From IMG/VR virus record IMGVR_UViG_3300035182_002389, positions 32,001-96,000 of that record: 64,000 bases of DNA; one strand, given 5' to 3'. Source of the stretch: a virus. Its lineage: Duplodnaviria; Caudoviricetes. The translations under genes and the position numbers were made by a program. This document shows positions 4,491 through 21,148 of this stretch, in pieces. How positions within the stretch are numbered: the first letter of the stretch is position 1; the number at the start of each line of letters is the position of its first letter. Under the pieces are notes generated by a model, which saw only the letters and a program-made list of their open reading frames with translations, ran no database searches and was not told where the DNA came from.

Positions 4491-4495
4491 AAGGA

Positions 4496-4561
4496 CGACC
4501 TTCGGTCGAGCACGGGCTTTGCCCGAGGACGCGCCTTCGGCGCGAGGACGGCCTTCGGCCG
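4496..4561. repeat. Four-hairpin triloop array, copy 1
   Basis: CGACC-TTC-GGTCG AGCA CGGGC-TTT-GCCCG AGGA CGCGCC-TTC-GGCGCG AGGA CGGCC-TTC-GGCCG. Confidence 0.9.
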
Positions 4562-10147: not shown

Positions 10148-10524
10148 AGACGCCTCCCATGCGCGTCGAGGGCATGCCTGAGAGCCCCGAGCGAACCGCC
10201 AAGCGGCTCGGCTTGTCGAAAGCCGTCGTCGATTCGCTGCGGCGTCTGCTTGGCATGGGGCCGAAGAAGAAGACCGCGCCGAAGAAGGTCCGCCAGTTGC
10301 TCGATCTCCTCCACGGCGGACATCAAGAAGTGTGGGTCTTCTGGGAGGACACCGTCAAACCGACGAAGAACGTCCGGTCGGCCGCAGAGTGGCACTGCCA
10401 CGTGACCGGAACGCGCACGTTCGACCGCCACTCGCTGTCGGCCTTCACGGGCGTGCCCGTCGAGGTGCTGATGTCGGACGACCTGAAGCTGCTCCTCCCC
10501 TACGGCATCCGTCTTGCGCGGTAA
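10144..10524 (+). CDS. Hypothetical protein
   Basis: GGAGGG RBS, GTGA overlap. Confidence 0.55.
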   Translation: MKTPPMRVEGMPESPERTAKRLGLSKAVVDSLRRLLGMGPKKKTAPKKVRQLLDLLHGGHQEVWVFWEDTVKPTKNVRSAAEWHCHVTGTRTFDRHSLSAFTGVPVEVLMSDDLKLLLPYGIRLAR

Positions 10525-10591: not shown

Positions 10592-11584
10592 ATGTCACAT
10601 GCGCCCGTGATGTACACGCTGTCCGCGCCGAGCCTTTCGGCCCTCGGACAGATCCAAGGAAACTTCAACGACGGCGATCTTGGCGTCGTGGGCCGCGTGT
10701 TCTACGTCTATCGCTCGGCCATTCCTGCGCTGCCGCCCATAGGTGGAACCCTCGCCTACGGAAAAGGGTATTGGGCGCCGTTCAACGATGTCCCCCTCAG
10801 TGAGACGACGCGCGAAATCATCGTCGTGGCAAGCGGGACAACCTCAGCGTTTCGGACGCCCGTCGGCTCGTATTTCGCGGCTCATTCCGAAGACGTGCAA
10901 GTCGACATTTCGACCGACGGCGGTACGAACTGGATCGAGCAGCAATACGGTCCCGACTACAACGCCTACTACTCGGGCATGTGGAACCCGCCGTACGAAC
11001 AGCCGATGAGCGTGCGCGATGTTGCTTCTGGCATCTGGATTTCGGGGGGCTTCCCGCCCGCGGGCTGGCTCGTCCGAATCCGATGGATCGAGCGGACCGC
11101 GGTCTTCTTTCCGCGCACCGTGAGCCCGACGAGGTTCGACTTCAACGGGATCGCCTGGATCGTGAACAACGCCGTGTCGTGGACGACGAGCAACGAGTTG
11201 TACAATCCCAACGGGGTTATCGTTCCGCCTGGGCCCAGCGGGTTCGTTCCTGAGCTGTGGCGCGTAGGACGACATCGCGGAGGGCTCAACCGATCCACGG
11301 TCGGCAAAGACTTTCACGGGTCGGGCCGCCGCTTGCTGCCTTATTTCCGCGGCCCGCAAGCCATCGTGGCCGATCCCAACGGGCTGGTGTTCATCGGCAC
11401 GTCCGACATCGCGGGCCCGTCGCTTTGCAAGTTGAAGTTTCGCGTCTGCTACTACAGTCCAACGCTTCGCGCCCGTACTCCGTTCGCGCCCGGACTCATC
11501 ACGCGTTTTGCGAAGCTCGATCGGCATAACGGCAACTCCACCACCGTCCGCAAGGCGCAAACGATCTACGTGGATCCGTCCTGA
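10592..11584 (+). CDS. Beta-rich protein, possibly virion- or fibre-associated
   Basis: Asp-box-like ISTDGGTNW; lower GC than neighbours. Confidence 0.55.
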   Translation: MSHAPVMYTLSAPSLSALGQIQGNFNDGDLGVVGRVFYVYRSAIPALPPIGGTLAYGKGYWAPFNDVPLSETTREIIVVASGTTSAFRTPVGSYFAAHSEDVQVDISTDGGTNWIEQQYGPDYNAYYSGMWNPPYEQPMSVRDVASGIWISGGFPPAGWLVRIRWIERTAVFFPRTVSPTRFDFNGIAWIVNNAVSWTTSNELYNPNGVIVPPGPSGFVPELWRVGRHRGGLNRSTVGKDFHGSGRRLLPYFRGPQAIVADPNGLVFIGTSDIAGPSLCKLKFRVCYYSPTLRARTPFAPGLITRFAKLDRHNGNSTTVRKAQTIYVDPS

Positions 11585-11605
11585 TGAAGTGGTAGTCTTT
11601 TTTCC

Positions 11606-11702
11606 GATGCGACCGTGAAGCCGTGGTCCTTTAGCATTCCGGTCGGAGTTCTTTAGGGTGCCGTTCGGCGCCACTTTAGGATCACGCCTCCACGGTCGCA
11701 TC
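11606..11702 (+). ncRNA. Candidate structured RNA (symmetric three-way junction)
   Basis: 12-bp closing stem GATGCGACCGTG/CACGGTCGCATC and three CTTTAG units; intergenic. Confidence 0.5.
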
Positions 11703-11783
11703 TGAGCTTTTGATGCTCCCCGCAGATTCTCTCCATCGCCCCATCACGCTCGCGCCCCTGACGGGGGCGGCGTGGAGGACGCC

Positions 11784-12089
11784 ATGGGAGATCGAAGCCG
11801 TTGCAAAGATCGTGGTCGAGGGGATCGTCGAGACTGCACGCGCGCGTGCGCGCTGAGCGCCTGGAAGCTCTGGACGCGCGTCATGGGCTCAACGTGGCCC
11901 GTGCCCGCAGGGAAGTTCAAGAAGCGTCAGGCGATGAGCTGTCGGTGCCGCAAGCACCCCGTCGGGAGCCCCAAGGTCGGAGGGTCGCTCTGCCACGGGG
12001 GCGCCTATCATCCGGCGACCGTCGAGCGCATCGTCGGCAAGCGCCTCGCGCGCGATTGGCTACGCTTCGGTGAGACGGAGGAACGATGA
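11784..12089 (+). CDS. Cys-rich basic hypothetical protein
   Basis: GGAGG RBS. Confidence 0.5.
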   Translation: MGDRSRCKDRGRGDRRDCTRACALSAWKLWTRVMGSTWPVPAGKFKKRQAMSCRCRKHPVGSPKVGGSLCHGGAYHPATVERIVGKRLARDWLRFGETEER

Positions 12090-16537: not shown

Positions 16538-16568
16538 GTGCGCCTCACACCTCGCGAGACGAAAAGGA

Positions 16569-16636
16569 CGCGCCTTCGGCGCGAGCACGACCTTCGGTCG
16601 AGGACGCTCCTTCGGAGCGAGGACGCGCTTCGCGCG
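16569..16636. repeat. Four-hairpin triloop array, copy 2
   Basis: CGCGCC-TTC-GGCGCG AGCA CGACC-TTC-GGTCG AGGA CGCTCC-TTC-GGAGCG AGGA CGCGC-TTC-GCGCG. Confidence 0.9.
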
Positions 16637-16648
16637 AGGCGAGAAGTC

Positions 16649-19438: not shown

Positions 19439-21148
19439 ATGAAGAAACCGAACGCGGGAAGCGAAAAGAACGCGCCGTTGGCGCGAGCACGCGCTTCGCG
19501 CGAGGACGCTCCTGCGGAGCGAGGACGCTCCTTTGGAGCGAGCGGCGAGAAGCAAAAGTACGTCGCGGGGCGCCCCGTGCGGGTCGGCGACAGGTTCGGC
19601 GAGCTGACCGTCACCGAGCAGATCGAAGCGCCCGACCACAAGACCTACCAAGGTCGGCACTGGCTCTGCACGTGCGACTGCGGCAACCCTGCGATTCGCA
19701 CGACCACGACGCTTCAGCAAGCGCTCGCAAAAGGGCACGTCTCTTCCTGCCGAGAGTGCTGGCTGGAGCTGCTCCGATCGCGCACGGCGGAGACGTTCGA
19801 CCAGGAACGAACCAAGACGCGCACCGCGCTCGCATCGCTGTGGGCGCAGCATCGAACGCTCTACAGCGTCGCCTACGACGCGCGCGAAGAAGAACGGATT
19901 CGAGACGCCATCGAAGAGGACGGGATCCCGATCCGGTCGGAGGAGTCGCTCTCCGAGCAGTACGCCGTCGAGCCCTCACTGCTGAACGTCGACGCTCCCT
20001 CGTCGGCGGAGACGACCACGGCCCCGGTGCAGCGCGCCGCGTACCTCTATCCCGTCGGAGGCGGCGAGCTTTGCTGGGCGTGCATCACGTGTGGCGAGAC
20101 CTTTTCGCGAGGGTTCGGGTGCACGCTCTGCATCGAGCCCGTCTGCATGGACTGCGTGAGGAGCGAGGCGCACGTCCACACCGAAGACGAAGACGGCCTG
20201 ATGCTGCATCAGATTGCGGCGGAGTTCGATCGGAGCCGCGAGCGCGTCCGGCAGATGGAGACGCAGGGTCTCACCAAGCTGCGTCACCTCCACATGGCTT
20301 CACTCGTCAGGACCCTCGGGGCGGACTACGTGAGCGTGCACGCGTTTCTTCGCGCCTTGCACCCCGAGCTTCTCGACGTCGGCGAGATGCTTGCTGTGCT
20401 CGACTGGCGCGAGCGCATGGCGCGCGAAGCGAAGGTCGCCGCGTACAGGGCCGCAGAGGAGGCGGCCGAGAGGGCCGCAGAAACGCGGAGGATCATCGAA
20501 GAGCGTCGCCAGGCCAAGCGTGAAGAAGAACAGCGTCGCCGGGCCGAGCTTGCTGCCCAACCCGAGGAAGTGAGGGCGCTTCGTATTCAGCGCAACCTCG
20601 CGCGTCGTGAGACGGAGACGACGCGGCTGGCGAACGATCTCGCAGCCTGGCACGCGAACCTCGAAGCGTTGCGTGCGAGCGAGCCCGAACGAGATCGGCG
20701 CGCGGCCGAGGCGAAGAGCGCGCTCGAACTCGAACGCATCGAGAACGAGAAGAGGCGCAGCGCCGAGGTGATGGAAGAGGCCCGTAAGACCCTCGCCACG
20801 ACCTCCGCCGTCTTCGTCCCGAGCAAGCTCAGGGTCGCCGCGCGCAAGCAAGACCTCCTCGCGATCCTCATGCTCCCCGTCGGCGAGTTCGATTTCAGCG
20901 AGGAGGTGCGAGGCGCACTCGTCGAGGCCGGCGCCGAGTACATCGGCGATCTTCTCTGCGAGCTGTCGTGCCCGCCTTCGCGATGGGTCGGACCTCTGCT
21001 CGGCGCGGAGGTGCTGTTCGCGTTGCGAGAGGTCGGCCTCAACTTCGGCGTCAACATCTACGCGCTCACGGGCAGGAAAGGCTCGGAGCTGCCGTTCGCG
21101 ACCCCGTTCGTCAAGCGGATGGGGAAGGTTTCAACCAAAAAACATTGA
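19439..21148 (+). CDS. Multidomain protein: CDCG zinc domain, sigma70 region-4 HTH, coiled coil, RNA polymerase alpha-CTD-like domain
   Basis: WLCTCDCG; LHQIAAEFDRSRERVRQMETQGLTKLR; LPVGEFDFSEEVRGALVEAGAEYIGDLL. Confidence 0.7.
   Translation: MKKPNAGSEKNAPLARARASREDAPAERGRSFGASGEKQKYVAGRPVRVGDRFGELTVTEQIEAPDHKTYQGRHWLCTCDCGNPAIRTTTTLQQALAKGHVSSCRECWLELLRSRTAETFDQERTKTRTALASLWAQHRTLYSVAYDAREEERIRDAIEEDGIPIRSEESLSEQYAVEPSLLNVDAPSSAETTTAPVQRAAYLYPVGGGELCWACITCGETFSRGFGCTLCIEPVCMDCVRSEAHVHTEDEDGLMLHQIAAEFDRSRERVRQMETQGLTKLRHLHMASLVRTLGADYVSVHAFLRALHPELLDVGEMLAVLDWRERMAREAKVAAYRAAEEAAERAAETRRIIEERRQAKREEEQRRRAELAAQPEEVRALRIQRNLARRETETTRLANDLAAWHANLEALRASEPERDRRAAEAKSALELERIENEKRRSAEVMEEARKTLATTSAVFVPSKLRVAARKQDLLAILMLPVGEFDFSEEVRGALVEAGAEYIGDLLCELSCPPSRWVGPLLGAEVLFALREVGLNFGVNIYALTGRKGSELPFATPFVKRMGKVSTKKH
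19471..19540. repeat. Four-hairpin triloop array, copy 3
   Basis: CGCGCC-GTT-GGCGCG AGCA CGCGC-TTC-GCGCG AGGA CGCTCC-TGC-GGAGCG AGGA CGCTCC-TTT-GGAGCG. Confidence 0.9.

Follow-up and report, generated by a model that had tools for sequence, protein, structure and literature searches.

The stretch of viral DNA analysed here, called the window, is 64,000 nt long and corresponds to bases 32001–96000 of an IMG/VR record of 202,518 nt (65% GC, ~94% complete by estimate). The virus is present at sediment and microbial-mat sites. Between two ORFs on the plus strand, 10514/10592–11584 upstream and 11772–12089 downstream, it has a 187-nt intergenic gap that holds a 97-nt element at 11606–11702 (+). 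An earlier note on this DNA had placed an intergenic element here, closed by a 12-bp stem and containing three CTTTAG units, and we find the same: the gap lies between plus-strand ORFs as described, and all letters and coordinates are correct (stem 11606–11617/11691–11702; CTTTAG at 11629, 11651 and 11674). The features of the locus, all on the plus strand, are:

10592–11584 (+): gene encoding P0001, a basic all-beta protein of 330 aa; the longest ORF runs from a TTG at 10514, but homologues start with the Met codon at 10592
11590–11598 (+): TGgTAGTCT, a putative extended –10-like element 7 nt upstream of the stem base, with no good –35 hexamer; transcription start predicted at G11606
11606–11702 (+): whole structured RNA, stalk plus three-way junction, 97 nt (from the fold and the R1 score)
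11606–11617 (+): outer stem, 5′ strand, 12 bp with 11691–11702 (from the fold; the pairs covary in A2)
11618–11621 (+): internal loop AAGC opposite CCUC (11687–11690), probably A.C, A-U, G-C and C.C (from the fold)
11622–11630 (+): helix H1, 5′ strand, 9 bp with 11678–11686 (covariation)
11629–11634 (+): junction motif CUUUAG, copy 1; CU closes H1, UU is the linker and AG opens arm 1
11633–11652 (+): arm 1, an 8-bp hairpin with one C.U mismatch, one U.G wobble and the loop GGUC
11651–11656 (+): junction motif CUUUAG, copy 2
11655–11675 (+): arm 2, an 8-bp hairpin with a bulged A at 11673 and the loop GUUC
11674–11679 (+): junction motif CUUUAG, copy 3
11678–11686 (+): helix H1, 3′ strand (covariation)
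11691–11702 (+): outer stem, 3′ strand (fold, covariation)
11703–11716 (+): tail UGAGCUUUUGAUGC, with a short run of U behind the stalk; as a terminator it would be weak at best (read from the sequence)

Folding and copy number of the element

Folded as plus-strand RNA, 11606–11702 reaches –54.2 kcal/mol (z –8.2), a stability attained by none of 200 dinucleotide shuffles, and RNAfold gives its main helices pair probabilities of 0.87–1.0. The arms, which had been drawn with nine base pairs and a 2-nt loop, are 8 bp long and end in the tetraloops GGUC and GUUC. The proposal that the AG of each unit pairs with the CT of the next to form a symmetric junction holds in several homologues, where this form is the MFE structure, but not strictly in the window RNA: here the fully symmetric junction lies at –53.1 kcal/mol, 1.1 above the MFE structure (a nearest-neighbour value for this sequence alone), in which the first AG pairs with the last CU.

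The element is single-copy, as BLAST and both covariance models (R1 and R2) return one match each, and dispersed palindromes of the REP/BIME type are thereby ruled out. R1 scores the element at 92.8 bits on the plus strand and 55.7 bits on the minus strand. Three CTTTAG at the observed spacing occur once in the window and in none of 100 shuffles. The hexamer is strongly avoided across the 202,518-nt genome, with five occurrences on both strands together against ~17 expected per strand from base composition, and three of these five sit inside the element. Close strains add little: the 99.6% identical L121 has 11 substitutions across 2,657 nt, all outside the element, and is uninformative, and low-depth DNA contigs aligned to the stretch break near the element and contribute no variants.

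The element accompanies one protein gene

Relatives were found through the upstream protein, and every context with retrievable DNA was taken in (n = 12: the window, L122, L126, L127, L181, L179, L183, L185, L186, L187, L188 and L189). A stalk with a three-way junction lies 0–75 nt past the stop codon of the protein gene in 12 of 12 contexts. Among the window genes tested, this gene is the sole one common to the window and the neighbourhoods of its relatives, and whole virus records carry one RNA and one protein gene each. The genomes that host the pair are diverse: the loci L185 and L189 belong to viral contigs 199 kb and 173 kb long, and in the tailed phage L188 the gene stands between that of a tail protein, on its upstream side, and that of the large terminase subunit TerL (phrog_38, 1e-85). 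The RNA and the upstream gene form a module of two parts that travel jointly among virus genomes with nothing else in common, and they probably function together. Searches of 50,697 phage records with DNA and protein, a single-protein scan of viral contigs and a polymerase-based search returned no further relatives.

Several neighbourhoods have features of their own. In L188:803–5547 the relative of the window protein (10592–11584) is P0017, encoded between the genes of a tail or minor-tail protein and of TerL. In L122:4742–5977 and L126:2385–3590, the gene immediately before that of the family protein codes for a GDSL/SGNH-type lipase or esterase, which suggests a host-surface recognition or degradation module. 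In the 199-kb viral contig G001 (L195; G001:C1:165593–165946), an intact RNA follows an ORF of just 129 aa, which matches the C-terminal portion of the protein family; this ORF is either what is left of a truncated gene or the RNA's partner in minimal form. Finally, a 9,254-nt contig from sample 3300075153 carries five or six tandem paralogues of the family (342–387 aa), with gaps of 140–306 nt after three of them and ~30 nt after two. Because of these mixed gap sizes, the RNA may close each transcription unit rather than each gene.

Expression signals

Sequence signals suggest that the element is transcribed, though the signals differ between members. In the window, a scan for consensus promoters and terminators finds none at the element. 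L122 has a promoter-like site matching the consensus at 11 of 12 positions (TCGACA-17-TATAAT) between the stop codon and the RNA; in L179, TTGACG-17-TATTAC lies 7 nt ahead of the stem, and U7GU5 comes right behind the outer stem; L126 has TCGACG-17-TAGTCT before the RNA, placed like the –10-like element of the window, and a separate terminator hairpin after it. Both L179 and L126 have a clear U tract downstream of the RNA. L127 resembles the window, with a TGn-extended –10-like TGcTACGCT in the same placement and no –35 hexamer. In L185, L186, L187 and L188, the stalk starts 0–8 nt past the stop codon with no visible promoter, and the RNA would then be the 3′ end of the mRNA. A scan for intrinsic terminators, GC-rich stems with a U tract right behind them, finds none in L122 and L127, and no U tract follows the stalk in L185, L186 and L188.

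The placement of the last four members illustrates the main rival to the interpretation developed below, namely that the structure is a cis-acting 3′-end element of the upstream mRNA: a terminator, a block to 3′ exonucleases, or a site of RNase III processing or retroregulation. The long stalk would have this role, and the element would thereby control how stable and how abundant a highly expressed late mRNA is. We regard this as nearly as likely as the interpretation developed below, each being less probable than not. It would account for a position always directly 3′ of the same gene, and as close as 0–8 nt to the stop codon in L185–L188; a stalk of 20–25 bp with a conserved internal loop has the shape of an RNase III substrate, which spans about two turns of dsRNA with an internal loop; the U7GU5 of L179 and the terminator after the L126 RNA are in keeping with 3′-end formation; and the L188 copy sits at the boundary of the tail and packaging modules. 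A cis-acting element, however, has no need for a three-way junction, arms fixed at 8 bp, a 64-nt core or three junction strands that change in concert; most members lack a U tract, and our scan finds no terminator in the window; and strong promoter-like sites stand between gene and RNA in L122 and L179. It explains the position of the structure but not its fixed arms or concerted junction.

Those same signals bear on a second alternative, namely a stand-alone small RNA that serves as a decoy, sponge or anti-defence RNA by binding a host factor or a different viral one, and that neighbours the protein gene only through a shared expression cassette. Units of promoter, RNA and terminator in L179, L126 and probably L127, where the next gene is convergent, speak for it, and an almost fully paired RNA must act by shape. 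We nevertheless consider it decidedly unlikely: the link to one protein family is strict across very different genomes while the other neighbours change, and a junction motif that varies by lineage is odd for a conserved host target.

Conserved architecture and covariation

Members of the family are ~86–102 nt long and consist of a 20–25-bp stalk, interrupted by an internal loop and capped by the three-way junction. The core measures 62–66 nt in 11 members and exactly 64 nt in 8 of them. It comprises the 9-bp H1, two 8-bp arms with 3–5-nt loops and three 2-nt linkers; below H1, every member has an internal loop or mismatch and then 7–15 further pairs. In the four closest members, 97% of the cells in paired columns are paired and 17 of 34 pairs show compensatory changes, which none of 500 shuffles reaches. 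The junction core of nine members is 92% paired, with compensatory changes at 19 of 25 pairs (0/500 shuffles), and sliding the partner by 1–3 columns lowers the paired fraction of this core to 32–55%. A covariance model built from the nine cores (R2), from which L188 and L179 were left out, recovers both, at 38 and 36 bits. These substitution patterns indicate that the structure is under selection. They also support the idea, voiced in the earlier note, of an ncRNA or cis-element with C3 pseudo-symmetry, in that homologous loci keep the stalk, the junction and the triple motif.

The pair table of 11 members, segmented by hand and checked letter by letter against the loci, holds 236 Watson-Crick, 25 G.U, 4 A.C and 10 other cells. 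Since the opposite strand would carry 25 A.C mismatches, the folded strand is the plus strand, the sense strand of the gene, and the excess of G.U over A.C extends to the homologues what had been proposed from the wobbles of the window element. For L183 the strand is ambiguous, as R1 prefers minus and R2 plus, with one wobble each way.

A strand bias in wobbles would also arise from folded single-stranded DNA, and the element might instead act at the DNA level, either as a recombination site that folds as a single strand or a cruciform and marks where a mobile gene cassette ends, with a logic like that of attC, or as a binding site for a protein, its three direct repeats lying about two helical turns from one another. 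The gene and the element do behave as a cassette with changing flanks, and the repeats are spaced 22–23 bp. This alternative is very unlikely in our view: the promoter and U-tract signals fit an RNA, and it is the pairing that is kept between lineages, not the sequence of the direct repeats. Integron attC sites carry inverse core and core sites (RYYYAAC ... GTTRRRY) at their ends and have an integron integrase nearby. The ends of 11 elements lack RYYYAAC/GTTRRRY boxes, and no integrase family is seen in the retrieved loci.

The two arm loops of one RNA are, for example, GGUC and GUUC, GCCC and GACC, or CUCU and CCCC; in the window clade most loops are GNNC. Complementarity between them follows no consistent or covarying pattern in the 11 members, and kissing loops between the arms are ruled out on this ground. 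GGA sites of the CsrA type are likewise ruled out, as GGA is paired and not conserved, and so is a hammerhead or other ribozyme core, as the junction strands are only 2 nt long and no Rfam family matches.

Three-fold symmetry of the junction

All three junction strands read CUUUAG in the window and L127, and those of L122 and L126 depart from it slightly. Elsewhere they are AUCAAU three times (L179), YUCAAR (L185 and L187), CU(C/G)AAG, that is CUSAAG (L188), UUUAAR (L186), CUCAAG (L183) or mixed (L181). The comparison shows that the symmetry is conserved and the hexamer sequence is not: homologues do not lose the triple pairing, the outcome that would have counted against the earlier note, and the hexamer changes by lineage in all three strands together. 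In a test with one representative per lineage (n = 7), each junction position was shuffled among RNAs; the linkers within one RNA show 33 identities against a shuffle mean of 19.4 (p = 1e-4), and whole hexamers are alike to the same effect (p < 1e-4).

Pairing forces the complementarity of neighbouring strands, not the identity of linkers, and the stems of the two arms are not homogenised. For these two reasons a recent triplication does not explain the symmetry. Something treats the three junction faces as equivalent. Across these lineages the symmetry is kept by selection, junction strands changing together while stems drift. The alike linkers could also form a symmetric core of RNA only, for example through triples of identical bases, with no protein involved, and this would fit any functional reading.

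Comparison with known RNA classes

The element almost certainly represents a new conserved structured RNA family, absent from Rfam 15, with a pseudo-C3 junction and a two-part modular association with one protein family. The earlier note had recognised no known Rfam family, and none matches any member that we tested: a search of window 11300–12000 against Rfam 15 gives chance-level matches only (best E 0.72, 14.8 bits against a cut-off of 40), and a search of the loci of eight relatives returns nothing on the element. ARAGORN finds no tRNA or tmRNA gene in the window. Full-text literature searches gave no description of such an element; there is a catalogue of ~10,000 candidate structured RNAs in IMG/VR (PMC10690425), whose unnamed entries may include it.

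One of the known RNAs closest in outline is the prohead RNA (pRNA) of the phi29 family (Rfam RF00044), whose domain I joins a 5′/3′ helix, a pyrimidine-rich three-way junction and two arms (PMC5066667). Its sequence is poorly conserved and its secondary structure conserved, and its CE and D loops have intermolecular Watson-Crick complementarity (PMC5066667). Because the element shares the 5′/3′ helix, the pyrimidine-rich junction with UU linkers and the two arms, one can ask whether it assembles, as a packaging RNA would, into a ring on the packaging motor of a virus whose DNA is protein-primed. The resemblance is one of shape only, and this reading is so improbable that we give it next to no weight. 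The pRNA model has no match at E ≤ 10 in window 11300–12000 or at E ≤ 1 in the loci of the eight relatives, and no other Rfam family matches the element above chance level; the loops are 3–5 nt long, without covarying complementarity between the arms and without the complementary CE and D loops for ring formation; and unlike pRNA the element has equal 8-bp tetraloop arms and three junction strands that are all alike. The family is linked to a fibre-like gene rather than to a packaging motor or packaging genes, and it also occurs in a tailed phage with a terminase of the TerL type.

ToxI, the antitoxin RNA of type III systems, is a tandem array of near-identical 34–36-nt repeats that lies upstream of the gene for an endoribonuclease and is processed to single units, and the ToxIN complex is a three-fold symmetric triangle. 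The element resembles it in that a short motif is repeated several times and the RNA is encoded beside a protein gene. In contrast to ToxI, only the 6-nt junction strands repeat, with a period of 22–23 nt; the units form one folded junction; the RNA lies downstream of the gene; and the protein has no Pfam or PHROG family and no ToxN-like family match. A type III antitoxin RNA is ruled out by these differences.

T7 R1.1 and lambda sib are sites of RNase III processing or retroregulation. Like them and like intrinsic terminators, the element has a long interrupted stem directly behind a gene, and some members end in a U tract (L179), but those are simple hairpins and most members here lack the U tract. 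We know of no RNase III site, retroregulator or terminator with a conserved symmetric three-way junction as its cap.

The upstream protein

P0001 is basic (pI 9.4), as are the small members of its family (pI ~9–9.7). The family comprises 84 cluster representatives that share residues ~65–330 behind variable N-termini and have many invariant Arg, Trp and Tyr. Pfam and PHROG hold no family for P0001, the feature atlas returned nothing for it, and its sequence contains no recognisable RNA-binding domain. The AlphaFold model is all-beta with three domains (pLDDT 76.5, pTM 0.71). Foldseek with this model finds nothing in the PDB at E ≤ 1e-3; fold searches of VIA, BFVD and the atlas give weak likeness (Z ≤ 6.7) to N-terminal modules of tailspikes, to podophage tail adaptor or fibre proteins and to FN3. 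A homotrimer prediction scored 0.00, which is not evidence either way. The weak fold matches, the basic pI and the invariant residues, together with the position in the tail module of L188, make a virion fibre or spike-like identity plausible.

Discussion

The reading that we tentatively place first is that the RNA is a three-site partner of the neighbouring protein and that the two form a ribonucleoprotein. The three identical junction faces would provide three equivalent binding sites, occupied by three copies of the protein or by a trimer, and the resulting particle could serve, for example, as an assembly scaffold or cofactor. Because it exposes almost no single-stranded sequence, the RNA should act by shape and not by base-pairing to targets. 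In L122, L179, L126 and perhaps the window it would be transcribed from a promoter of its own, and in L185–L188 it would form the 3′ terminus of the mRNA of the gene. Several points weigh against this partnership. No RNA-binding domain is recognisable in the protein, whose fold matches are weak; G001 keeps an intact RNA with only the 129-aa C-terminal ORF; the RNA lies 0–8 nt past the stop codon with no visible promoter in four contexts, which fits a cis-acting 3′ element equally; and adjacency is expected for such an element too.

A more specific form of the protein-partner reading, which we hold to be unlikely, is that the RNA is a three-fold template for three copies of a basic beta-sandwich fibre-like protein, acting as scaffold or structural cofactor of a trimeric virion protein. 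Its motivation is that the genomic slot of the RNA matches that of tail-fibre assembly chaperone genes: lambda tfa, T4 gp38 and P2 G lie directly downstream of a fibre or receptor-binding gene, as the RNA lies behind a fibre-like one. The products of tfa, gp38 and G are proteins, whereas here the slot holds an RNA, and the fibre identity of its neighbour is weakly supported. If this reading were true, the RNA would be the counterpart of these chaperones; with pRNA as the only precedent, it would make a second known kind of phage assembly RNA; and its junction strands would co-evolve with the protein.

To our knowledge, natural RNAs with internal three-fold pseudo-symmetry are rare. With this family it can be asked in a clean setting what recognises a symmetric RNA junction, whether this is a homotrimeric protein, three single monomers or the RNA on its own. 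Because the RNA is strictly paired with a widespread, uncharacterised family of viral proteins (84 cluster representatives), a function can be tested for both partners. The junction of pRNA is already used as a module in RNA nanostructures, and the small, very stable 64-nt core of this family could serve in the same way.

Look-alike repeats

Pattern scans of viral and genome contigs for the triple motif gave only tandem repeats and chance matches. Arrays of a 22-nt hairpin in a Treponema MAG and 11-nt repeats in Paenibacillus, both scored by R1, are low-complexity look-alikes and not members of the family. The Treponema sp. arrays, on several contigs of one genome (L150:1652–2327, L156:7085–7232 and L147:3537–3719), join their 22-nt units by CCUYUAGG linkers and reach up to 46 bits with R1 purely through repetition. 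The window itself holds three further arrays (4491–4560, 16557–16640 and 19463–19545), each made of four tandem mini-hairpins of ~18 nt with the pattern GA-CG-stem-UUCG-stem-CG-AG. Their fixed linkers and differing stems follow a building logic like that of the junction RNA, but these are linear arrays of another family.
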